Source of the DNA: Bacilli bacterium | Lineage (GTDB): Bacteria; Bacillota_I; Bacilli_A; ML615J-28; CAG-313 | Assembly (NCBI GenBank): GCA_017501465.1 | Contig: JAFVWY010000012.1 | Coordinates: forward strand, 10,191-74,190 | Length of the DNA stretch: 64,000 nt | Direction: 5' to 3' | In this document: positions 9,697-58,036 of the stretch, piece by piece | How positions within the stretch are numbered: position 1 is the first letter of the stretch | Layout of the letters: every line of letters starts with the position of its first letter | The notes under the pieces: model-generated | What the model was told of the DNA's origin: nothing | What the model saw: only the letters and a program-made list of their open reading frames with translations | The model's database searches: none | Position numbers and translations under genes: made by a program

Positions 9697-12372
9697 ATGA
9701 AATTTAAATTTAGATATTTAATTATTGTTGTTGCTTTATTAGCACTTATTGGATGTGCTGCTCCAACTGACCTTTCAAAATGTAAAATGTTAAGTAAAAC
9801 ATTTGATTATGATGGTCAACAACATTCTTTAAAAGTTATTAATGTTCCAAGTGAAGCGACAATTATTTATAAAAATAATAATCAAAAAGAAGTAGGAAGT
9901 TATAAAGTAGTAGCTGATGTTTCGATGCCTAATGGTGAAAAGAAAACATTAGAAGCAACTTTAACTATTGTTGATCCTAACGCATCCCCTTTGGATGAAT
10001 GTATGCTTTTAAATAGAAACGTTGTTTATAATGGAGAAGAACAATACTTAACAGTTAGAAACTTACCAGAAGGTGCTACTGTTGAATATTATGGAAATGG
10101 TGTAAAAGATGCAGGTAAACATAAAGTTACAGCTGTTGTAACTCTTGATTCATATGTTAAAGAATTATCTGCATACATTAATATTGAAAAAGCTGAACCA
10201 GAATTTACTTTTGAAAAAGATCAAACATTTATCATGGTTGGTTCTAAAGCTTTTGGTGTTGAAGCAAGTGTAAATAACGATGAACAAGTTATTATTGCAG
10301 AACCAATGTCAGAAATTACTGGTCCTGGTAATTACCGTGTTAAAATCTCAGTAGATAGTTCTAAAAACTATAAATCTGGATACGATTATTTAAATGTTAC
10401 TGTTATTAAAAATACATTAGATGTTGAATTCGAAGATGAAACATTTGTTGCTGATGGTACAGTTAAGAGTTTAAAACTAGTGGGTGAATCATTAGAAGGC
10501 TATACTGTAGAATATGTTAATAATGAACAAACAGAACCTGGTAAATATAATGTAAAAGCTTTGATTAAAACACAAGATGGTGAAGTTTATTGTACTGTTT
10601 ATGGTGTTTTAGAAATTGATAAACCAGATAATCAAGAATTTAATGAATTTATGGATGAATTATTTGTAGCTATTTTTGCTGGCGACCAAATGAGTATTAA
10701 TTTCTTCTTTAAAAATCCTGCTGATTATGGTTTAGATCATTATGAAGCTGAATTACCATATGCTACATTTGATAATTTCGAAGAAGGTCAACAACAATTG
10801 CTTGAAATTTTAGACGCTTTATATGAATTCGAATATGATTCATTATCAGCTGAACAACAAATGTCTTATAAAGTAGTAGAAGATTATTTTGTTTACTTAT
10901 CAAGTATTACAGAACCTATGGATTACATGACTAATGGATATTTAGGATCATATTTAGGTTATCAAGCAAATCTACCTTTAAACTTAGCTGAATATAAATT
11001 CAGAAATGAACAAGATATAAAAGACTTTATTAGTTATTTATACTCTGCTGAAGAAGCATTCAAAACATATTATCAATTCTGTGTAAAACAAAACGAATAT
11101 GGATTTGGCTTAACTGATATCGCGATTGACAATGTTGTTAGTCAATGTGAAAAATTTGTTGCTGAAAAAGATAATCATTATTTAATTGATATCTTCAATG
11201 ACAAAATTGATAATATTGAATTTGAATTAGCAGCTGATGTTGTTGAAGCTTATAAAGCAGAATGTAAGAGTGCTATTCAAAATCAATTATGTAATGCATA
11301 TCAATATGTTGCTGATAACCTACCTAATTTAAAAGGTGCAGATATTATTGAAGGTGGTTTATATCACTATGGAGAAGAAGGTCTTGAATATTTTGAATTA
11401 ATGTTTAGAGATACTGTTGGTTATAGCGATTTAACAATTGAAGAAGCTATTGCTTATGTAGATTATAAGATGAAAGAGGCTAATGATATTTTAGATGATA
11501 TCGTTGTTCAATTTAGAGGATTAACAGGAACAGATTATAATGATTTCTATTATGCTGCAGTAGAAGGTGATCCTGTCTTTACTGATAAAACTCCAATGGA
11601 AATTGTTGAATTATTCCAAGAATTAGCTAAGCAAATAGTTCCGGAATTAGACGTTATGCCTGAGATTTCAATTAAATATGTTTATGAATCATTAGAAGAA
11701 AACTTTAGTCCAGCTGCATACTTTGTTTCTCCACTTGATGAAACAAGATTTGAATCTATTTACTTAAATGGCTTATATACTGATGATGTTAACTATATTT
11801 TCACAACTTTAGCACATGAAGGATATCCTGGTCACTTATATCAAAATGTATATGCTAAACAATTAGACATTTCTAATGTTCGTAAAATCTTAAGATGTTC
11901 AGGTTATATGGAAGGTTGGGCAACATATGTTGAATTAAAAGCATATGATTGGGCACCTGATTATACAAGTAAAGGTCATAAGTTAGCTTTAGAATACTTA
12001 AAATATAATGATATATTAAATGGTATGTTATCTTGCCGTGTTGATTTAGGTATTCATGGACAAGGTTGGATGGCTGAAGATATCGCTAATTACTTAAATG
12101 AATTCTTCCAAACTAATGCTTATACAACAGAAGACATGCAAGATTTCTATGATCAAGTAGTAGAAATTCCAACTAATATGAGTCAATACTTCTTTAGTTA
12201 TAGTAAACTACAAGATATGCATGATCGTGCAGAAGAAATGCTTGGATGGGCATTTGATGAAATTGAATTTAATAAAGTATTATTAGATTGTGGTGCTGCT
12301 CCACTTGAATATGTTGAAGAAGCAGTTGAAGAATATATTTTAGATACTCTTTATGAATGGGGTGCAAGATAA
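9697..12372 (+). CDS. Large lipoprotein: N-terminal tandem MBG-like repeats plus C-terminal DUF885-like (HEGYPGH) domain
   Basis: Signal peptide with lipobox LIGC; four repeats of YxGxxQ...GxYKV-type beta modules in residues 35-310; HEGYPGHLYQ motif near residue 700. Confidence 0.5.
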   Translation: MKFKFRYLIIVVALLALIGCAAPTDLSKCKMLSKTFDYDGQQHSLKVINVPSEATIIYKNNNQKEVGSYKVVADVSMPNGEKKTLEATLTIVDPNASPLDECMLLNRNVVYNGEEQYLTVRNLPEGATVEYYGNGVKDAGKHKVTAVVTLDSYVKELSAYINIEKAEPEFTFEKDQTFIMVGSKAFGVEASVNNDEQVIIAEPMSEITGPGNYRVKISVDSSKNYKSGYDYLNVTVIKNTLDVEFEDETFVADGTVKSLKLVGESLEGYTVEYVNNEQTEPGKYNVKALIKTQDGEVYCTVYGVLEIDKPDNQEFNEFMDELFVAIFAGDQMSINFFFKNPADYGLDHYEAELPYATFDNFEEGQQQLLEILDALYEFEYDSLSAEQQMSYKVVEDYFVYLSSITEPMDYMTNGYLGSYLGYQANLPLNLAEYKFRNEQDIKDFISYLYSAEEAFKTYYQFCVKQNEYGFGLTDIAIDNVVSQCEKFVAEKDNHYLIDIFNDKIDNIEFELAADVVEAYKAECKSAIQNQLCNAYQYVADNLPNLKGADIIEGGLYHYGEEGLEYFELMFRDTVGYSDLTIEEAIAYVDYKMKEANDILDDIVVQFRGLTGTDYNDFYYAAVEGDPVFTDKTPMEIVELFQELAKQIVPELDVMPEISIKYVYESLEENFSPAAYFVSPLDETRFESIYLNGLYTDDVNYIFTTLAHEGYPGHLYQNVYAKQLDISNVRKILRCSGYMEGWATYVELKAYDWAPDYTSKGHKLALEYLKYNDILNGMLSCRVDLGIHGQGWMAEDIANYLNEFFQTNAYTTEDMQDFYDQVVEIPTNMSQYFFSYSKLQDMHDRAEEMLGWAFDEIEFNKVLLDCGAAPLEYVEEAVEEYILDTLYEWGAR

Positions 12373-18358: not shown

Positions 18359-20434
18359 TTGAGGTACACGAACATGTTTAAAATTGCAATTGATGGTCCG
18401 GCTGGAAGCGGAAAAAGTACTATTTCTAAGTTATTAAGTTCTAAACTTAATTTTGAACATATTGATACAGGTGCAATGTATCGAGCTATTACTTTGAAAG
18501 CTTTAAAATTAGGTATTAATTTAGAAAATGAAGATGAATATGATTTTTTAGACGATACTATAATCGAGTTGGATCACGATAAAATTTTTCTTGATGGTGT
18601 TGATGTTTCTAAAGAAATTAGAAGTGTAGAAGTTACTACTAATGCATCGACTCCTGCAAAACTTGGTCGTGTAAGAACTTGCTTAGTTGATTTACAAAGA
18701 AAAATCGCTGCAAGCAAAAATGTTATAATGGACGGAAGAGACATTGGTACAGTAGTTTTACCAAATGCTGATCTTAAGATTTATCTAGATGCTTCATGTG
18801 AATGTCGTGCTGAAAGAAGACGTTTAGAACGTTCACTTGCTGGTGTTGAAAAGTCTTTTGAAGAAACTCTTCAAGAAATTATTGTAAGAGATCATAAAGA
18901 TTCTACAAGAGCAATTAGTCCACTTAAAGTGGCAGACGATGCTATCGTCATTGATTCTTCAAACTTAACAATTGAAGAAGTTATAAATAAAATTATTGGG
19001 TTAGTAAACGAGAGGGTTAATAAAAGTATGAGTGAAAAAGTTATTACATTTACAGAAGGTCAAGAAGTAGTTGGAACTATTATCAATGTCAGCAAAGAAG
19101 CTATTTATATTGAACTAGAAGGTGAAAATAAAGCTGTAATTTATGATAATGATATGGCTGGCTATGTTGAAGGACAAAAATTACGTGATTATTATTTTGA
19201 AGGCGGAGAATTTAAAGGATTAGTAAAACAAATTACTAAGGACAATCGTTCAAATAAACCTTTATATATTTTATCAACTAAACTTTATAAAGCTCGTGAA
19301 GAAATTAAAGTTTTTGATGAATTAAAAGAAAAAGATGAAATTATTAAAGCGAAAGTTATTCATGTAAGTAATGCCGGTTGTGATTTATTATATAAAGGAC
19401 ATGATGATATTAAAGTATTCTTACCTGCAAAAAATATTTATTTAAATGAAAAAGCTTTACACTCATTAAGAGGCGAAATGATTGATGTTGTTGTAACTAA
19501 TGTTGATCATGAACAAATCAAAGTAATCGTTTCACATTCTGCGGCTCAATCAAAAATAAGAAAAGCTGCTAAAGAAGCTGCTTACAACGCTTTACAAGTG
19601 GGAGATGTAGTTGAAGGTGTAGTTGATTCAGTTACTGATTTTGGTGCATTTGTTAAATTGGGTGAATTAACTGGTTTATTACATCGTTCTGAATTAGATC
19701 ATAAACTTGTTAGAAACGTTAGTGATCAAGTAAAAGTTGGTCAAAACATTACTGTTAAAGTAATTAAATTAGAAGAAGGTAAAATCGGTTTATCAGTTCG
19801 TGCTTTAACTCCACATCCATGGGATGTTTTAAAAGAACAATACCATGTTGGTGATGTATTTGAAGGTACTGTTGTTAAAATCATTAATGCTGGTTTAATT
19901 ATTAAATTAACTGAAGAATACTCAGGATTAATGCCAAATGTTGAATTTTCATGGCGTACAAATGAACGTATTGAAGGTAACGTAAATGAAGGCGATACTA
20001 TCAAAGTTCAAGTAATGGCTATTGATAATAATAAGAAAAAAGTTAGTTTATCACACAGAGCAACTGTTGAAAATTTATGGGCCAATATCAATATTAAACC
20101 TGGAACAGTTATTAATGTTGAAATTGCTGCTATTCAAGAAAAAGGTGCAGTTGTTAATTACGAAACTATTTCTGGTTTCTTACCTGTTAATGAAGTTACT
20201 GATGCAAAACGCATTGGTAAAGTAGATGAAGTTTATCCAGTAGGAACAAAAGTTGACGCAATCGTTTTAGAATGCGATCCAGGAAGAGCTAAACTTGTTG
20301 TAAGTGTTAAAAAATTAGAAAACCAAAAAGAACGTGCTGAATTCGACCGTTTCTTAGAAAAACAAGAAAGTGAAACTCCATCAACTACTCTTGCTGATTT
20401 ACTAGGAGAATCTTTAAAGAAATTTTCTGAATAA
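18359..20434 (+). CDS. Cytidylate kinase fused in frame to ribosomal protein S1 (Cmk::RpsA)
   Basis: N-terminal IAIDGPAGSGKST P-loop Cmk (~220 aa) continuing without stop into ~470 aa with four S1 OB-fold repeats; likely start MFKIAIDG at 18374. Confidence 0.75.
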   Translation: MRYTNMFKIAIDGPAGSGKSTISKLLSSKLNFEHIDTGAMYRAITLKALKLGINLENEDEYDFLDDTIIELDHDKIFLDGVDVSKEIRSVEVTTNASTPAKLGRVRTCLVDLQRKIAASKNVIMDGRDIGTVVLPNADLKIYLDASCECRAERRRLERSLAGVEKSFEETLQEIIVRDHKDSTRAISPLKVADDAIVIDSSNLTIEEVINKIIGLVNERVNKSMSEKVITFTEGQEVVGTIINVSKEAIYIELEGENKAVIYDNDMAGYVEGQKLRDYYFEGGEFKGLVKQITKDNRSNKPLYILSTKLYKAREEIKVFDELKEKDEIIKAKVIHVSNAGCDLLYKGHDDIKVFLPAKNIYLNEKALHSLRGEMIDVVVTNVDHEQIKVIVSHSAAQSKIRKAAKEAAYNALQVGDVVEGVVDSVTDFGAFVKLGELTGLLHRSELDHKLVRNVSDQVKVGQNITVKVIKLEEGKIGLSVRALTPHPWDVLKEQYHVGDVFEGTVVKIINAGLIIKLTEEYSGLMPNVEFSWRTNERIEGNVNEGDTIKVQVMAIDNNKKKVSLSHRATVENLWANINIKPGTVINVEIAAIQEKGAVVNYETISGFLPVNEVTDAKRIGKVDEVYPVGTKVDAIVLECDPGRAKLVVSVKKLENQKERAEFDRFLEKQESETPSTTLADLLGESLKKFSE

Positions 20435-27379: not shown

Positions 27380-27826
27380 TTGAATAAGGGGATAAAAATA
27401 CTATTTTTGATTTCTTTGATGGGGTTTATTCTAGGGATATTGCAGACACTAGGAATTAAAAAAGAAGAAATTGATTTTGTTTTAGATTTAGATAAAAATA
27501 AAATAAAAGTATTAATAAATACTTTTACTATTAATTATTGGTATATATTTTTACTATGGTTATTTTCTCAGTTAGATCTAGGTAAGTTTTTTGCCTTTAT
27601 AATTATCTTTTTAAAATGTACTTTACTTGGAATTACTTTGTCTTTATTAATAAAAAGTCAGGCTTTATTTGGCTTAGGAACTTATTTGTTTTGTATGTTT
27701 GGGCAATTTATGATTATTTTGCCATTAATGTTTTACATTGTTTTAAATCATGGAAAAAAAGAAAAAAAGTTAATTATTAGTACGATTGTGATAATGATTT
27801 ATAGTATATTAAATTCATTGATATAG
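27380..27826 (+). CDS. Integral membrane protein (4-5 TM); possibly SpoIIM/DUF95-like
   Basis: Hydrophobicity only; TTG start; sits upstream of xerD where spoIIM lies in Bacillus. Confidence 0.3.
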   Translation: MNKGIKILFLISLMGFILGILQTLGIKKEEIDFVLDLDKNKIKVLINTFTINYWYIFLLWLFSQLDLGKFFAFIIIFLKCTLLGITLSLLIKSQALFGLGTYLFCMFGQFMIILPLMFYIVLNHGKKEKKLIISTIVIMIYSILNSLI

Positions 27827-32615: not shown

Positions 32616-33653
32616 CTATTCACCAACAACCCTTGATAAAGGAACATTTTCAGTATTTTTTCGCCATTTTGCACTTCGACCAGTTCCTAAAGGCATAATT
32701 ACGCCATCATCTCTTAATTTGTTTAAAACACGATTAATTGTCGCATCACTAACACCTGGATTTAATTCCCTAACATCATCTTTAGAAAAGAATTCAGGAA
32801 GTTTATAAATACTAGTTTCCACATTATCAGTTTTTAAACCTTTATTTTGGTATTCATATTTTTTAACATCTTCGTTTAATGTTTTATAAGCATCAATGAT
32901 AATATCAAAAATAACCTTACTAAATCCGGTAGCTTGGATAAAACCATCAAAATAGTTAATGCTAGCTTTTTTAATTTCATCTTCTATTATAGCGTATTTT
33001 TCATAGAAAAATTTGAATAAACTTTGATATTTAAACACAGTAATATTATTTCTACACATTGAATAATATAAAGATATTAAGGCTGCTAATTCATTTTCTG
33101 AATTAAAAGGTTGTAAATTAATTATATCTAAATATAATATTACACTCAAAATGATTGGTTCATATTTTTTATTATCAATAAATAATTGGTATTCATCTAA
33201 ACACTCATTTATTAATAAACGAACAGATTGTTTGATAATTCGTTTATTTACAACGGTATTGATTGTTTTATTATTATAATTAAATTTATGTTTACCATAG
33301 ATATGATTTAAGTATGATATTAATTCACCAGCATTTAAAGGATATCTAAGGGCATCGGTTTTAATAATTTGAAAGGTTGTTTTAATATTTTTAATGGCTT
33401 CTTCTTCTTTATTTTTGGGTTGAATATCTTTATTTAATAGTAAACGTATTCTATTATCTGTAACTTCTAGGCCTAAAATATGAGCAATATAGAAAGTATC
33501 TTCTAAAAGAGTCTTTTCTTCACTAATTTCTTTTAAAGTGCCTAATTTATCAAGGTATGTATCAGTTTTACCGATTTCTTTATAGGCATTTAACATTTGG
33601 ATTAATAATTCGGATGGTATAATATAATGATTTAAGTTTTCAAAATTACTCAT
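32616..33653 (-). CDS. Fic-fold-like protein with degenerate active-site motif and C-terminal winged-helix domain
   Basis: QPFNSENELAALI aligns to Fic HPFxDGNGRxxRLL with H, D, G, G, R all replaced; C-terminal ATINRVLNKLRDDGVIMPLGTGRSAKWRK wHTH. Confidence 0.35.
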   Translation of the reverse strand: MSNFENLNHYIIPSELLIQMLNAYKEIGKTDTYLDKLGTLKEISEEKTLLEDTFYIAHILGLEVTDNRIRLLLNKDIQPKNKEEEAIKNIKTTFQIIKTDALRYPLNAGELISYLNHIYGKHKFNYNNKTINTVVNKRIIKQSVRLLINECLDEYQLFIDNKKYEPIILSVILYLDIINLQPFNSENELAALISLYYSMCRNNITVFKYQSLFKFFYEKYAIIEDEIKKASINYFDGFIQATGFSKVIFDIIIDAYKTLNEDVKKYEYQNKGLKTDNVETSIYKLPEFFSKDDVRELNPGVSDATINRVLNKLRDDGVIMPLGTGRSAKWRKNTENVPLSRVVGE

Positions 33654-44825: not shown

Positions 44826-45518
44826 TTATTGGTTTTGTCTTTTTTTCATTCTTTCCCAAGCAATATAACCATAAATATCATTTATAAAGAAAGCAATGAA
44901 ACAGCCAACAACGGATACATAAGTTATATTTTCTATTGAAGCTAAAGTCCATAAAACAATTAAAACAATATCGTTTAAAGAATAGGCTAAGGCAAAATAT
45001 GGACTTCTTCTAAATGTCAAATATACTGCAACTGTACTAGTTAAAACAGAAATAGTACTAAATATTAAATTAGAAGTTTCAAAATATTTTAAGATAAAGT
45101 AAAATAATATTGTAATTATAATTGCTACAGGAAGAAATAAAAGGATTTCTTTTAATCTCACATGATTAACACTTACTTCTGTTTTATTATCTTTGTAGGG
45201 ATTTTTGATCCAACTGACCAATGAGACTATAGCAAAAGGCATTGTCATACCAAAGTATGTAATTACTTCTCCATAGTACTGATAAGAAAATGAAATTATG
45301 GCATATAAAGTACAAAAAATTATACCAACTATTTGACCAATAAAGTTGCCTTTAGCATTTAATATTAAAGAAATTACACCAATAATAGATGCTATAAAGG
45401 ATACATAGCCATTACCATCAAAAATAAAGAAAGCTAAACTAATAATTAGTATGGATGATATAAAAATGATCTTCTCAGTTAATGAAAAATAATTTATTAA
45501 TCTTTTCATGTAAGACAC
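44826..45518 (-). CDS. pnuC: Nicotinamide riboside transporter PnuC-like membrane protein
   Basis: 7 TM; NAKGNFIGQ...YAIISF...WIKN pattern resembling PnuC. Confidence 0.5.
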   Translation of the reverse strand: MSYMKRLINYFSLTEKIIFISSILIISLAFFIFDGNGYVSFIASIIGVISLILNAKGNFIGQIVGIIFCTLYAIISFSYQYYGEVITYFGMTMPFAIVSLVSWIKNPYKDNKTEVSVNHVRLKEILLFLPVAIIITILFYFILKYFETSNLIFSTISVLTSTVAVYLTFRRSPYFALAYSLNDIVLIVLWTLASIENITYVSVVGCFIAFFINDIYGYIAWERMKKRQNQ

Positions 45519-48703: not shown

Positions 48704-49318
48704 TTATAATTCATAATTTGCTTCATTAAATTTAAATTTTTTTATAATTTTATTATATTTAATAAAACAATAATAATTATTTAAGGCCTTAAAAGATAAA
48801 AAAATAATCAAGACTAAAATCATCCAAAATTTGAAAATTAAAAAAATAATAAATAGAAGGCTAATTAAAAGCAACTGAATCAGTAAAAGTACGTAATTTA
48901 AATATTCATCTTCCCACACAAGGCTAAAAATAGTATAAATTATATTATACCCATCAAGAGGTATAATCGGTAAAACATTTAATATAATGATGAATAGGTT
49001 GATTTTCAATAAAAAAATATTATTAGTAATTAAAAATATTAATTGTAATAATGATGAAAAAATAAGTCCACCACTATAAATAAATATCTTTTCTAGCCAA
49101 CTTCTTCTCTTATTTGATAAGTCTATAAAACAACCAAAGCCTGTTAAATGTAGATATTTAATTTCATTATGTGTCAATAGAATTATTATTAAATGTCCTG
49201 CTTCATGAAATAGTAAACAAAAAAATAATAAACTGGCTTCTTTTATAAACCCACTATATAACGCAATAATTAAATAAATTAGGAAAGAAAAGTGTATTTT
49301 AATTTTACCTATATTCAT
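48704..49318 (-). CDS. Small M50-family (site-2 protease-like) membrane metalloprotease, SpoIVFB-like
   Basis: HEAGH in a TM helix and downstream NVLPIIPLDGYN (LDG) motif; 14-bp overlap with upstream gene. Confidence 0.55.
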   Translation of the reverse strand: MNIGKIKIHFSFLIYLIIALYSGFIKEASLLFFCLLFHEAGHLIIILLTHNEIKYLHLTGFGCFIDLSNKRRSWLEKIFIYSGGLIFSSLLQLIFLITNNIFLLKINLFIIILNVLPIIPLDGYNIIYTIFSLVWEDEYLNYVLLLIQLLLISLLFIIFLIFKFWMILVLIIFLSFKALNNYYCFIKYNKIIKKFKFNEANYEL

Positions 49319-49880
49319 AGTACTTATTGTCTTTTGAAATTATTAAATTAAAAGTACTAACATTATTAATAATTTGTGGTGTACCTATAATTTGATCTAT
49401 GTCAATATATTCATATAAATAACAATCAATACTTAAAAGTCCTAAGTATTCATAAATCATTCCATCGTATGTTTGAATAGTAATAGTATATAAACTTTCC
49501 TTTTTGTTAATTTTAATGACTGTTCCTGCTTTTAAACATTTAACGAAGTTTGTACTTCTACTATGGAAGATGTTGTTTTTACCGTCAAAGGTAAATTCTT
49601 CATAATCAGTTGAGGTAGAAAGTATCGTTTCTTTTAACTTCTCATCATCAAAAAAAGAAATCAAATTAACACCAATTTTAGTGAGATTTAAAGGTTTGGT
49701 TAAAAAATCAAAACGAAAACTTGTTAAATTAGTAAATAACACTACAATTAATACTATTAAAGAGCTTAAAAAAATTCTAATAAATAAAGAGTCAAAATAG
49801 TTTTTTGAATGTTTGTTTTTATTCATTATTTTATTTTTACTTTTATAATATTTCTTTAATCTTTTATGATATTGTTCCAT
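49305..49880 (-). CDS. Membrane-anchored protein with degenerate M23/LytM-like C-terminal domain (SpoIVFA-like)
   Basis: Basic N-terminus, one TM, C-terminal beta-rich region AGTVIKINKKESLYTITIQTYDGMIYEYLGL lacking HxxxD/HxH metal ligands. Confidence 0.35.
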   Translation of the reverse strand: MEQYHKRLKKYYKSKNKIMNKNKHSKNYFDSLFIRIFLSSLIVLIVVLFTNLTSFRFDFLTKPLNLTKIGVNLISFFDDEKLKETILSTSTDYEEFTFDGKNNIFHSRSTNFVKCLKAGTVIKINKKESLYTITIQTYDGMIYEYLGLLSIDCYLYEYIDIDQIIGTPQIINNVSTFNLIISKDNKYYEYR

Positions 49881-54574: not shown

Positions 54575-54830
54575 AACCTCCTAATCAATAAAAAAAAGTC
54601 CCTAAGAATAACTCTTAAGGACGAAATAATCCGCGGTACCACCTTAATTAAAACAAATTAATGTTTTCACTTAATTAACTGTTAACGCCAGTGTACGTTC
54701 AATTCTACTACGATTTCAAATTGACTTCTCCAAGGCTACCTTCAAAATAACAATATGAAGTTTCACACCAAACAACTTCTCTCTGGAATATCGTTTATTT
54801 TTACTCTTCCTCTTCTTTGAATTTAGATAG
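54575..54830 (-). promoter_or_regulatory. T-box riboswitch leader for valS
   Basis: Minus-strand GGTGGTACCGCGG (plus 54631-54643), followed by terminator hairpin GTCCTTAAGAG..CTCTTAGGGAC plus U-run (54596-54622). Confidence 0.65.
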
Positions 54831-54876: not shown

Positions 54877-56643
54877 TTACTTATAATAACCATTTTTAAT
54901 TATTAAATCGTATACTTCGTCTAAAACATAATTAGCATCAAATGTTTCTCTAAATTTTGATGAAGATACATTCGATGTCGAGATAGTGATAATATAAAAA
55001 TTAGATTTATTATTTCTTAATAGAATTTCTTTTTCAAAAATTTCATCAACGTTGTCATTTTCTCTTTTGAAGACAATAAACTTGTTATTTTCTATTAATT
55101 TTTTACCATCAATCCAACCCACTAGATCTCTTAAACTATCGGTTCCTATGACGAAAAATGGATGATCTTTTAATTCTAAATATTTAACAGTTCCCCCAAA
55201 GTGAATATCTTTTTCATAATCATCAATTTCTATATTTGGGAAACTCATCTTAATTAATTCAAGACGTTCCTCAAAAGATAATAATTCTTTAGTTGGATAT
55301 TTGTTTCCGTTAGGTAATAATAACAAATCTTTTGAAATATGTTTCTTTATAAAATTAGCAATTTCAATGTGTGCAATAGTCGGTGGATTAAATGAACCAC
55401 CAAGAACGATTTTTTTACCTTTTAAATCTTTTTTAATACGATTAATTTCATTATAATTTGTAATAATCTTTTGACACATTAGTTTGGCATGCTGAATGGC
55501 TGTCGCAATTGATGTTGGATGATTATAAACATCACCAACAAAGTAAGTATTTAAATGACTTGAATCCAACAACCAATCTTTATCATCGATTAATTTAAAC
55601 CATTTTAAATCTTTAAAAACATTAAAATCTGGGTTTGCGCCATATGCTTCAACTAATAAATCAAAGTTATCATTTTCTAAGATATCTGTAGATTTAAACT
55701 TTTGTCTTTCCCCTTCTACTTTCGGTAAAAGTTCCATTTTTCTAAGTGTTGCGATTCCTTCATAATATTCTTCTAAAGAATACAATTCTTTAAAATTTAC
55801 TCCTTCTGTCTTAGCACACTCAATTTCGTGTTTTGTTGCAGGCGCATTTTCAAGATTTCTACGATAAATAATGGTTACATCATTACCTATTTTATTAAGA
55901 CTTCTTGCTGTATCGATAGCGGCATTACCACACCCCAAAACCCCGATTTTTTTATTTGTAATATTAAATTTATTTTCTTTTAAAAGAGATAATACCCAAG
56001 AACTACTAAAAATATTTTCACGATTTAGGATACGAATTGGTTTGTTAGAACCAGTCGCGATAACATGAAAATCATAATTATCAAGGTCTTCTAAAGTGAG
56101 GTTCTCTCCTAGTTTTGTATTAAATCTGATGTCAATATGATCCTTGATTTCGTTATAAATATCTTCAAGAACCGAATCATCAAAGCGGAATCTCGGAATT
56201 TGATTAGCAATTACCCCTCCGATTTTATTTTCAGCCTCGCACAGAACGACTTTGAAACCAGATTTTCGTAAAAGGATACTAGCAGCAAGACCTGCTACGC
56301 CGGCTCCAACCACAATAACACTTCCTTTAGAAATGGGTGGAAAATTAAAATTATGACCGAATCGTAAAAATAAATCATGTTCAATTTCTTCAATTCTGAT
56401 TCTTTCTTTGAAAGCTTTTAAATGTTTACAATTCTTCGCACATTGATGTTCATGAGGACAGATTAGACCACAAAGAGAAATTAATGGATTATTTTCAATA
56501 ATTATTTGATAAGCTTCAAGATATTTTTCTTGTTCATAATATTTCATAATAACAGGAATATTATTATGTAAAGGGCAATCTTTAATACAAGGTGCATTTT
56601 GACATTTAAAACAGGCTTTGGCGATAGTTTTTAAATCTTTCAT
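54877..56643 (-). CDS. Fusion protein: GltD-like Fe-S/FAD/NAD(P)H oxidoreductase (aa 1-~410) + nicotinate-nucleotide adenylyltransferase NadD (aa ~415-588)
   Basis: N-terminal CFKCQNAPCIKDCP and CGLICPHEHQCAKNC clusters, VVGAGVAGLAAS FAD fold, VLGCGNAAID NADPH fold; C-terminal GGSFNPPTIAHIEIA (HxGH), ISTSNVSSSKFRE (ISST) NadD motifs. Confidence 0.7.
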   Translation of the reverse strand: MKDLKTIAKACFKCQNAPCIKDCPLHNNIPVIMKYYEQEKYLEAYQIIIENNPLISLCGLICPHEHQCAKNCKHLKAFKERIRIEEIEHDLFLRFGHNFNFPPISKGSVIVVGAGVAGLAASILLRKSGFKVVLCEAENKIGGVIANQIPRFRFDDSVLEDIYNEIKDHIDIRFNTKLGENLTLEDLDNYDFHVIATGSNKPIRILNRENIFSSSWVLSLLKENKFNITNKKIGVLGCGNAAIDTARSLNKIGNDVTIIYRRNLENAPATKHEIECAKTEGVNFKELYSLEEYYEGIATLRKMELLPKVEGERQKFKSTDILENDNFDLLVEAYGANPDFNVFKDLKWFKLIDDKDWLLDSSHLNTYFVGDVYNHPTSIATAIQHAKLMCQKIITNYNEINRIKKDLKGKKIVLGGSFNPPTIAHIEIANFIKKHISKDLLLLPNGNKYPTKELLSFEERLELIKMSFPNIEIDDYEKDIHFGGTVKYLELKDHPFFVIGTDSLRDLVGWIDGKKLIENNKFIVFKRENDNVDEIFEKEILLRNNKSNFYIITISTSNVSSSKFRETFDANYVLDEVYDLIIKNGYYK

Positions 56644-56695: not shown

Positions 56696-58036
56696 TTAAT
56701 TATGCCAATATTTATTAATTAATTTATTAAAAGTCTCTCCTCTTTCAATATAATTTTTATACATATCAAAGCTTTGAGAAGCTGGCGAAAAAAGAATAAT
56801 TTGTTTGTTTTTATTAGAATGTAGATTTTTAATTATATCCTCTAAGTCATTATATAAACTAACCTCACAATCATAATTACTAAGTTCTTTTCTTATATCA
56901 TTTTTATTTTGACCTATTAAATGTATACAGTCTACTTTACTTAACATGTCGTGACACATGGAGATATTACTAGGGCCAAACCCACCTACAATCCAATGAA
57001 ACTCTTCTTGATTAACATTTACTGATTCGAGTGCTGCTAATGAAGCATTCCAATTAGTTGATTTTGAATCATTAATAATCAAGACATCATCTGTCTTTAA
57101 AACTTTTTGTAATCTAAAGTCTTCATAAGTTAAATCTTCTAGGGCTTTTCTAATCTTAGAGATCGATATATTTAAATGTAAACCGACAATTGTCGCTACC
57201 ATAATATTTTTTAATTGATGTTTAGGAATAATAGGATATGAGTTTATTTTATAAAGTACTTCTTCTTTATAATATAGTTTATCATCAATTAACTTAAAAT
57301 TTAGACCATCTATTTCATTACTAAAGAAGACTTTATTACAATCAATACTACAAAATTCATTTATGAAAATTTCTTCATCTGGACAAATTAACAAACTTTC
57401 TTTGGGTAAATTAAATACTAATTTAGTTTTTTGATAAAAGTACTCCTTAAAGGATTTATGATAATCTAAATGATGTTCACCTATATTTAATAATACATAA
57501 ATTATAGGTTTTACACTATAACAATGTTGTAACATAAAACTTGATGTTTCAACCACAATAATTTCATCTTTAAAATTTTTGTTGCTTTTTAAACTAAATA
57601 AAGGAACTCCAATATTGCCTCCTAAATAACATTTTTGTTTTTTAGTAACTATTGTCGAAATCATTTTAGAAGTCGAGGTTTTACCATTGGTTCCAGTCAC
57701 TAAAATAAATTTTGCTAAAGGATAAAACCAACTAAAAAGTTCCAAATCGTTAATTACTAATTTATTTAATTTAGCAGCATCTATTAATAACTTAGTATCG
57801 GGAAAGATCCCTGGACTTTTAATAATAATATCAATGTTGGTAAGATCATATGAAGAGTTTGAGTCATCGACAAAAACCTCATATGAAAAGTTATGTTCGT
57901 CAAAAAAGGATTGGACTGCTTGGTTAGATAGCCCTAATCCATATAATAAAAACTTATAATTTTTAAATTGTTCATAGTTTTTCATTAAATCCTCCAAATT
58001 ACTAGTCCTATAATGACAAAAATAATTTCTATACAA
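56696..58036 (-). CDS. murD: UDP-N-acetylmuramoylalanine--D-glutamate ligase
   Basis: Mur-ligase P-loop GTNGKTSTS; follows mraY. Confidence 0.85.
   Translation of the reverse strand: MYRNYFCHYRTSNLEDLMKNYEQFKNYKFLLYGLGLSNQAVQSFFDEHNFSYEVFVDDSNSSYDLTNIDIIIKSPGIFPDTKLLIDAAKLNKLVINDLELFSWFYPLAKFILVTGTNGKTSTSKMISTIVTKKQKCYLGGNIGVPLFSLKSNKNFKDEIIVVETSSFMLQHCYSVKPIIYVLLNIGEHHLDYHKSFKEYFYQKTKLVFNLPKESLLICPDEEIFINEFCSIDCNKVFFSNEIDGLNFKLIDDKLYYKEEVLYKINSYPIIPKHQLKNIMVATIVGLHLNISISKIRKALEDLTYEDFRLQKVLKTDDVLIINDSKSTNWNASLAALESVNVNQEEFHWIVGGFGPSNISMCHDMLSKVDCIHLIGQNKNDIRKELSNYDCEVSLYNDLEDIIKNLHSNKNKQIILFSPASQSFDMYKNYIERGETFNKLINKYWHN

Follow-up and report, generated by a model that had tools for sequence, protein, structure and literature searches.

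A flavoprotein gene fused to nadD in uncultured gut and rumen Bacilli as one state of a labile operon pair

A stretch of 64,000 nucleotides (nt) from contig JAFVWY010000012.1 of a Bacilli bacterium (assembly GCA_017501465.1; hereafter the window) was analysed for a gene on its minus strand whose single product joins a flavoprotein of the NfnB/GltD superfamily to NadD, the nicotinate-mononucleotide adenylyltransferase of NAD synthesis. Analysis of this gene, its homologues and the corresponding loci gave good support for a real and conserved single gene of uncultured Bacilli from gut and rumen. Each of the two families is familiar; no account of their fusion was found in the literature searched. 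Comparison of the loci revealed that the fusion belongs to a labile operon pair, whose two genes are found separate or fused, or with NadD joined to NadE. The features of the gene are as follows.

54877-56643, minus strand: fusion gene, NfnB/GltD-superfamily flavoprotein plus NadD, 588 codons and a stop codon
56651-56657, minus strand: Shine-Dalgarno sequence AAAGGAG, read from the sequence, 7 nt 5' of the ATG and inside the gap that follows murD
56377-56625, minus strand: N-terminal Fe-S domain, residues 7-89 (Pfam Fer4_20, 1.6e-19)
55486-56322, minus strand: FAD plus NADPH two-Rossmann module, residues 108-386 (Pfam Pyr_redox_2, 3.3e-17; motifs GAGVAG, GCGNAAID, YRR and GD)
55411-55458, minus strand: linker, residues 396-411, prolonging the last helix of the FAD domain, clade-specific
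54880-55410, minus strand: NadD domain, residues 412-588 (PF01467, TIGR00482, NadD matches in the PDB, synteny)
55369-55401, minus strand: nucleotidyltransferase signature GGSFNPPTIAH, residues 415-425, the T-type variant of (H/T)xxH
54949-54969, minus strand: ISSTxxR-type motif VSSSKFR, residues 559-565, with S560 invariant and S561 present in at least 90% of 20 homologues

The initial annotation, made from the sequence alone, had described a single intact open reading frame (ORF) with both modules, placed their junction near nt 55400 and considered the architecture uncharacterised. The gene reads as one ATG-initiated ORF of 588 amino acids (aa) with no internal stops, beginning after a gap of 52 nt from murD. 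Fer4_20, Pyr_redox_2 and CTP_transf_like domains were all found with Pfam, the last of them (PF01467) over residues 413-566 (E=2.8e-18), and the cofactor and catalytic motifs are intact, which confirmed the description. The NadD half starts at I412, nt 55410, so that the junction had been placed correctly, and targeted full-text searches of the literature gave no description of a flavoprotein-NadD architecture. An AlphaFold2 model built on a shallow alignment reached a mean pLDDT (predicted local distance difference test) of 90.1 and a pTM (predicted template modelling score) of 0.89; in this model a single long helix (residues 377-407) bridges the FAD domain and the NadD Rossmann fold. Foldseek against the PDB returned no solved structure with the complete architecture.

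A word-indexed search identified a 100%-identical protein in an ENA assembly (P0001) and full-length relatives of 585-607 aa at 77, 60, 58, 53 and further down to 32% identity, in about 30 clusters. The orthologue search that the initial annotation had proposed recovered the same architecture down to that identity, in about 15 clusters (50% identity) with HMMER over 1.84 billion representatives and in 17 species-level genomes (one genome per GTDB species). These genomes are labelled Bacilli bacterium, uncultured Staphylococcaceae or uncultured Mollicutes, with one Erysipelotrichaceae and one labelled Bacillota only, and come from human, ruminant, rabbit and chicken gut.

Conservation of motifs was scored on a 20-sequence alignment of full-length homologues. 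The redox half contains eight cysteines in two clusters, C11, C14, C19 and C23 (Cx2Cx4Cx3CP) and C58, C62, C68 and C72 (Cx3Cx5Cx3C), at which homologues bind two [4Fe-4S] centres; seven of the eight are invariant and C58 is present in at least 90% of the sequences. The FAD motif G113xG115xxG118, the NADPH motif G237xG239NxAxD244 followed by Y260-R261-R262, and G370-D371 (the FAD 'GD') were all found to be invariant. The invariant YRR after the second Rossmann motif is presumably the 2'-phosphate-binding feature of NADPH-specific GltD/NfnB members.

Sequence searches with this half placed NfnB first (4ylf_B, 1.5e-34), followed by GltD (about 1e-24) and dihydropyrimidine dehydrogenase (DPD; 1e-17). 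Foldseek matched the N-terminal module to NfnB (5jca_L, E 1.6e-29, target-normalised TM-score 0.74; 4ylf_B, 0.74), to GltD (6s6s_E, 0.76) and also to the N-terminal part of DPD. Among NCBIfam models, YgfK, PRK12771, gltA (NfnB-type) and gltD models matched the N-terminal 400 residues, all far under their curated cut-offs: 164 against 472 for the NfnB-type TIGR01316, and 90 against 448 and 130 against 483 for the GltD models TIGR01317 and TIGR01318. The term GltD-like used in the initial annotation is thus right at the level of the superfamily, whereas the closer relatives are NfnB proteins and every curated GltD/gltA cut-off was missed.

NfnB is the large subunit of NADH-dependent ferredoxin:NADP+ oxidoreductase. 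The NfnB proteins of T. maritima (4ylf_B) and P. furiosus (5jca_L) are the closest solved relatives of the redox half and have in common with it the Fer4_20, FAD and NADPH organisation, all eight cysteines and the YRR motif; unlike them, the redox half is about 35 residues shorter at the N terminus, belongs to a separate clade and is without a nearby NfnA. GltD (2vdc_G, 6s6s) shares the superfamily and the cofactor set, and the redox half is more distant from it than from NfnB. The 64-kb window contains no GltB-sized ORF (>900 aa) in its ORF list and no Glu_synthase domain by Pfam. Blastp with two NfnA sequences gave no match in the window or in any of the 29 loci in which the redox module is associated with NadD, while the same search did recover true nfnAB loci from Clostridia and others (L027, L029, L031, L034, L037, L042 and L043; L-numbers denote the genome loci compared). 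A glutamate synthase small subunit was rejected on the absence of GltB from the window, the widely missed curated scores and the closer match to NfnB, and a true NfnAB on the absence of NfnA from the window and the 29 loci. The redox half is well supported, on its motifs and matches, as a predicted NADPH-binding FAD and 2 x [4Fe-4S] oxidoreductase of a short, partner-less NfnB/GltD/DPD branch.

Analysis of the NadD half revealed that G415, G416, S417, F418, N419, P420, T422 and H425 are invariant in the 20 homologues and common to 36 standalone NadDs, and that S560, S561 and R565 are kept in fused and standalone NadDs alike. Both NadD motifs named in the initial annotation are present, but the ISST-type motif is V559SSSKFR565 and not ISTSNVSS (residues 554-561), which is five residues out of register. 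The NadD half shares 34 conserved positions with the 36 standalone enzymes; only N445 and H494 are invariant specifically in the flavoprotein-associated NadD clade, which has no clade-specific insertions and a single one-column deletion. Sequence matches in the PDB include the NadDs of S. aureus (2h29) and B. subtilis (1kam). Bacterial NadD has in common with the fused copy the fold family, the motifs GxFxPx(H/T)xxH and SSxxR and the genomic slot upstream of nadE; the fused copy differs in being bound to a 400-residue flavoprotein and in its PPTIAH, which is T-type as in eukaryotic nicotinamide-mononucleotide adenylyltransferases (NMNATs) and not HxGH. The T-type motif GSFNPPT..H also occurs in the eukaryotic dual-specificity NMNAT 9rpk. 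For substrate specificity this likeness is a lead only; the sequence holds no reliable signature for nicotinate mononucleotide (NaMN) versus nicotinamide mononucleotide (NMN).

The best NCBIfam family of the C-terminal half was always TIGR00482 NadD (1.5e-22), and PF01467 scored 66.9 bits against a cut-off of 21. The TIGR00482 score of the window protein, 80.6 bits, lies under the cut-off of 112.45. Scores for this model fall along the lineage, from 134 in L053 and L062 (an Izemoplasmatales metagenome-assembled genome (MAG) and Inordinaticella) through 109 in L035 (Acholeplasmataceae), 105 in L022 and 93 in L016 to 81 in the window; L022 and L016 are split forms, and the nearest standalone or split relatives of the window protein, at 93-109 bits, are also under the cut-off. 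The sub-threshold score is probably due to this graded divergence of the lineage and not to a different family. A degenerate or non-NadD nucleotidyltransferase (RibL-like FMNAT, CoaD) was rejected on NadD being the best family, the position by nadE and the 34 shared residues. When the NadD half was compared by blastp with every ORF of 70 aa or more in the window, it matched the fusion ORF only, which bore out the earlier statement that no standalone nadD is visible elsewhere in the window.

For the analysis of synteny, ORFs were called in 80 genome loci and labelled by blastp against the window proteins, and the labels were cross-checked with NCBIfam for MurE, MraY, MurD, ValS, FolC and RadC and with Pfam for NadE (CN_hydrolase and NAD_synthase). 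Two features delimit the fusion gene in the window.

56696-58036, minus strand: murD, upstream neighbour and last gene of the murE-mraY-murD block (TIGR01087 3.1e-84, above the cut-off), marking the conserved insertion site
54614-54826, minus strand: T-box leader of valS (Rfam RF00230, 154 bits), the 3' boundary of the fusion transcription unit

The terminator of the T-box was placed at 54622-54598, and 54863-54835 resembles a strong extended -10 promoter. In the window valS directly follows the fusion gene; in relatives, nadE occupies the position of the T-box leader. A gathering-threshold Rfam scan found the valS T-box and an L21 leader and no riboswitch or other RNA control 5' of the fusion gene; with the gap to murD being 52 nt, upstream RNA control was rejected.

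Comparison of the loci revealed an ancestral-type order murE-mraY-murD-nadD-nadE-valS-folC in Acholeplasmataceae-type MAGs (L035, L040, L061), and the nadD-nadE pair alone in Inordinaticella and in MAGs that carry the labels Haloplasmataceae and Izemoplasmatales. One clade has an NfnB/GltD-like gene of about 410 codons between murD and nadD, and five states were found: (i) three separate genes (L016, L022); (ii) fused GltD-like~NadD followed by nadE (L002-L004, L007, L008, L010, L012-L015, L018); (iii) the GltD-like gene with a 799-802-aa NadD~NadE fusion after it (L019-L021, L023, L024, L026, L028, L048); (iv) fused, nadE no longer being at the locus (the window, L001, L005, L006, L009, L011, L038 and the closest NCBI relative, GCA_965338945.1); and (v) split, with nadE gone from the locus (L025, L041). 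The pair is fused at 17 loci and split at four, and at eight the GltD-like gene stands beside NadD~NadE. At ten of the fused loci nadE was counted directly after the fusion gene. In 29 of the 29 genomes with the pair, the GltD-like gene is immediately 5' of nadD with no gene between. The NadD half is well supported as the predicted housekeeping NadD of the lineage, because it occupies the same slot between murD and nadE/valS as the standalone nadD of sister lineages.

Further arrangements were observed at these and other loci. In one subclade (L004, L007, L010, L013, L014 and L061) murD is separated from the flavoprotein or nadD gene by an opposite-strand gene of about 264 aa; L061 has this gene but lacks that of the flavoprotein. 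NadD~NadE fusions of 799-805 aa (CTP_transf_like, CN_hydrolase and NAD_synthase) occur in the state (iii) loci (for example L019:11221-13620 and L021:3295-5703) and in L077; the genomes bear the labels Staphylococcus sp. CAG:324, Anaeroplasma MAG and uncultured Mollicutes or Bacilli. These proteins unite the two final steps of NAD synthesis in a single chain, and no description of this fusion was found in the literature search. In Clostridia MAGs (Neoclostridium, uncultured Clostridia and uncultured Lachnospiraceae) the order nfnA-nfnB-obg-nadD~yqeK(HD)-rsfS-like was seen in four of the five loci L029, L031, L034, L037 and L043 (for example L031:9075-13689), with an opposite-strand ORF in place of obg in L029. 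We note this as a second, looser co-location of NfnB and nadD genes and do not rely on it, as it comes from one related group and obg intervenes.

Fusions of an adenylyltransferase of NAD metabolism to other domains are known. NadR has the architecture HTH-NMNAT-RNK (helix-turn-helix, NMNAT, ribosylnicotinamide kinase), NadM-Nudix is another such fusion, and NadD-YqeK(HD) (PRK07152; seen in L031) likewise joins an adenylyltransferase to an accessory domain. The partners in these three are not redox flavoproteins, whereas the N-terminal partner here carries FAD, NADPH and Fe-S sites.

The history of the pair was analysed with neighbour-joining trees and bootstrap. The NadD-associated flavoprotein clade was monophyletic (99% bootstrap), which therefore suggests a single insertion of the flavoprotein gene upstream of nadD. 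The split L025 clustered with the fused L005 and L006 (100%), and the unfused L016 and L022, together with the NadD~NadE-type group, formed a separate clade (99%). The two halves evolve at similar rates. Stop and start codons overlap as ATGA at five of the six split junctions examined. Such an overlap is a classic signature of translational coupling, and it indicates that the split gene pair is translationally coupled.

Analysis of the junctions revealed different linkers among the fused clades. In the split state about 28 residues follow the FAD 'GD' and five precede GGSFNP; the fused L005 clade has the same spacing, joined (34 residues from GD to GGSFNP). The corresponding distance is 30 residues in L012, 41 in the L004 clade and 49 in L015. 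In the window and L001, and in L002, L008 and L018, it is 45-47 residues with a homologous linker NxxEIxRIKxxL, which L003, a member of that fused clade, has in a shorter form of 43 residues; the linkers of other fused clades are unrelated to this one or absent. A single ancient fusion was rejected, as split forms nest in fused clades and the linkers are unrelated. The simplest reading of these junctions is that the ancestor would have been split and ATGA-coupled, with at least four independent fusions.

Outside this clade, the redox module is closest to standalone proteins of 408-460 aa, mostly about 410-420 aa. Of these, P0041 and P0055 are found in an addB...UDG...leuS context and P0036, P0034 and P0053 in three other contexts; in the loci inspected the solitary relatives had no recurrent partner and no nadD nearby. 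Coordinates of solitary genes include L081:6001-7263 and L083:6001-7272, with others in L085-L088. The proposition that the redox module is always linked to NadD was rejected on these solo relatives. A functional analogy may be drawn with EhNO1/2 of Entamoeba histolytica, described as solitary GltD-like NADPH-dependent oxidoreductases without the large subunit (Jeelani et al. 2010, as reported in PMC11423594); like the redox half they would be GltD-like without a large subunit, and they are not linked to NadD.

Three clusters of 362-aa variants (P0023, P0024, P0026), with 49-64% identity to the window protein in the first search and 62-64% over the shared region, have lost the Fe-S and NADPH domains and retain an intact NadD half; in two of the three GxGxxG has become GTCNAS. 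The variants, one of them at L089:8001-9089, occupy the same murD-valS locus. P0024 is a bona fide gene there: it lies 53 nt from murD with valS as the next gene, which leaves no room for a pseudogene remnant. NadD is thus the indispensable half, since these variants lose the redox domains and keep NadD.

NadD and NadE are nearly universal downstream enzymes of bacterial NAD synthesis, and PnuC is a committed nicotinamide riboside transporter (PMC6593275); NMN-using adenylyltransferases provide a NadE-independent route to NAD (PMC3376133). No NadE homologue was found in the window, and Pfam found no NadR, PncB, NadV, ferredoxin or flavodoxin among window ORFs of at least 120 aa. One transporter gene of the pathway is present.

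44826-45518, minus strand: PnuC-family nicotinamide riboside transporter (PF04973 6.9e-32), about 9 kb from the fusion gene

The PnuC gene sits between the PPDK gene and the L21 leader and is absent at the same position in the 60%-identical L090. The missing nadE and the nearby PnuC hint at a shift to salvage of nicotinamide riboside and NMN. The NadD half may use NMN derived from nicotinamide riboside in the window lineage, because nadE has left the locus, the PnuC gene is near and the T-type motif is as in 9rpk.

Overall, the explanation that we favour, with moderate confidence, is that of a bifunctional protein which would have arisen from two prior operon neighbours and would be linked to NADP(H) redox metabolism. 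Its first three steps are held with high confidence. The C-terminal 177 residues would be the housekeeping NadD in its ancestral slot, adenylating NaMN, and possibly NMN, with ATP. The N-terminal 400 residues would be an NADPH-binding FAD and 2 x [4Fe-4S] oxidoreductase that is a solitary gene in other genomes. The flavoprotein gene would have been inserted once 5' of nadD in ATGA-coupled form, before at least four independent ORF fusions. The last two steps, in which each half keeps its ancestral catalysis and the two form a fixed 1:1 physical unit, are put forward tentatively. In the fourth step the flavoprotein would carry electrons to or from NADP(H), with a low-potential partner, for example ferredoxin or flavodoxin, at the other end, and NadD would make nicotinate adenine dinucleotide (NaAD) or NAD. 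In the fifth, the weakest, the 1:1 unit would tie production of the NAD(P) pool to an enzyme that loads or unloads NADP(H); that the halves form a physical unit is suggested by the pTM of the model. No new chemistry on NaMN would be required.

Several observations weigh against this explanation. The whole murE-to-folC block is syntenic in the clade, and adjacency alone is no proof of a functional link. The redox module is also found alone in unrelated contexts. Three findings weaken the case for a redox half with an obligatory, NadD-specific role: its close relatives stand alone at a distance from nadD, the NadD moiety has hardly changed from standalone NadDs, and the redox half is decayed in the 362-aa variants at the same locus, where any benefit of coupling is dispensable. 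Repeated fusion could be nearly neutral, because the ATGA overlap makes fusion mutationally easy.

Among the alternatives, NadD might, as the initial annotation had suggested, be gated by redox state or NADPH: the flavoprotein would serve mainly as a sensor, with NADPH/NADP+ occupancy or the redox state of FAD or the Fe-S centres altering the conformation of NadD, and NAD synthesis would be adjusted to how reduced the pyridine nucleotides are or to exposure to oxygen. We consider this unlikely, and equally so an obligate flavoprotein-NadD complex in which the NADPH/NADP+ or ferredoxin redox state would directly gate NAD synthesis. Gating would agree with the predicted long helix that rigidly joins the modules in a confident model (pTM 0.89), with at least four independent recurrences of the fusion, with translationally coupled split forms and with the lack of an electron-transfer partner encoded nearby; N445 and H494, invariant only in the associated clade, could be interface or relay residues. 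However, the eight cysteines and both dinucleotide sites are conserved at catalytic grade, as in working NfnB and GltD, close relatives of the module are autonomous genes without NadD, and NadD itself is hardly remodelled in the clade (two positions). Moreover, lineages without the cofactor sites retain NadD, so regulation is not essential, and literature searches found no precedent for allosteric redox control of NadD.

A near-neutral accident, in which unrelated neighbours fused easily at ATGA in a small AT-rich genome and the product was tolerated with no functional coupling, is judged quite unlikely. Adjacency may merely have been inherited with the syntenic murE-folC block, a single indel at the ATGA overlap suffices to join the frames, NadD was joined to its other neighbour NadE too, and the redox module is autonomous elsewhere and decayed in the 362-aa variants. 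Such an accident fits poorly with a fusion fixed independently no fewer than four times, in some cases not by bare read-through but with 7-15 residues of structured linker added, with fusions kept down to 32% identity with both halves equally constrained, with the high pTM predicted for a two-module protein, and with a pair that is contiguous in 29 of 29 genomes with no intervening gene.

New chemistry of the kind that the initial annotation had raised as a NaMN/NAD-modifying activity, in which the adenylyltransferase and the flavoprotein would act sequentially to reduce or oxidise NaMN, NaAD, NMN(H) or isomers of NAD(H), much as ATP sulfurylase and adenosine 5'-phosphosulfate reductase might be compared by analogy, appears very improbable. 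Its circumstantial support is that both halves bind pyridine or adenine nucleotides and are fused, and that nadE is lost from the window locus, leaving the fate of NaAD open. A normal nadE directly follows in most NadD-associated loci, which fits the sequence NaMN to NaAD to NAD and makes new chemistry on NaMN or NaAD unlikely; in addition, YRR suggests ordinary NADPH binding and the active site of NadD has the residues found in standalone enzymes. No redox step is required in the canonical salvage pathway (PMC6593275, PMC3376133).

An assembly or sequencing artefact, with two genes separated by a missed stop or frameshift near 55410, was rejected as having a negligible probability: although some relatives do have two genes (L016, L022, L025, L041), the ORF is continuous, an identical protein occurs in another (ENA) assembly, 17 loci and about 15 clusters from many independent assemblies are fused, and the window linker is kept in homologues of 52-77% identity.

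Other features of the window were recorded. The 691-aa ORF at 18359-20434 (plus strand) combines cytidylate kinase (Cmk) and S1 RNA-binding domains, a cmk-rpsA type of fusion and another fusion of neighbouring genes in the same genome. The 891-aa protein at 9697-12372 (plus strand) belongs to the DUF885 family, with about 340 unannotated N-terminal residues. Four ORFs of 148-345 aa without a Pfam match lie at 48704-49880 (minus strand), 32616-33653 (minus strand) and 27380-27826 (plus strand). The two of these that lie downstream of radC are syntenic in relatives, at about 200 aa each in L001, L005 and L090.

NadD, an essential enzyme found in nearly all bacteria, has been studied as an antibiotic target; our literature searches turned up no redox-protein partner for it. 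In a defined clade of uncultured gut and rumen Bacilli, NadD is paired with an NADPH-binding Fe-S flavoprotein by translational coupling or by repeated fusion. The apparent loss of nadE beside a NadD-type enzyme, with PnuC nearby, raises the question of a shift to NMN. If redox gating were true, it would be the first redox-allosteric control of the essential NadD, hard-wired at least four times in one gut Bacilli clade; if the coupling is merely tolerated, the pair would still illustrate cleanly how genes that overlap as ATGA fuse time and again in reduced genomes. The split pairs, the fusions that differ in their linkers, the NadD~NadE proteins and the redox-decayed variants are at hand as natural controls, and the pair provides a concrete case in which to test whether NAD(P) pool synthesis is linked to the redox metabolism of NADP(H) and ferredoxin.

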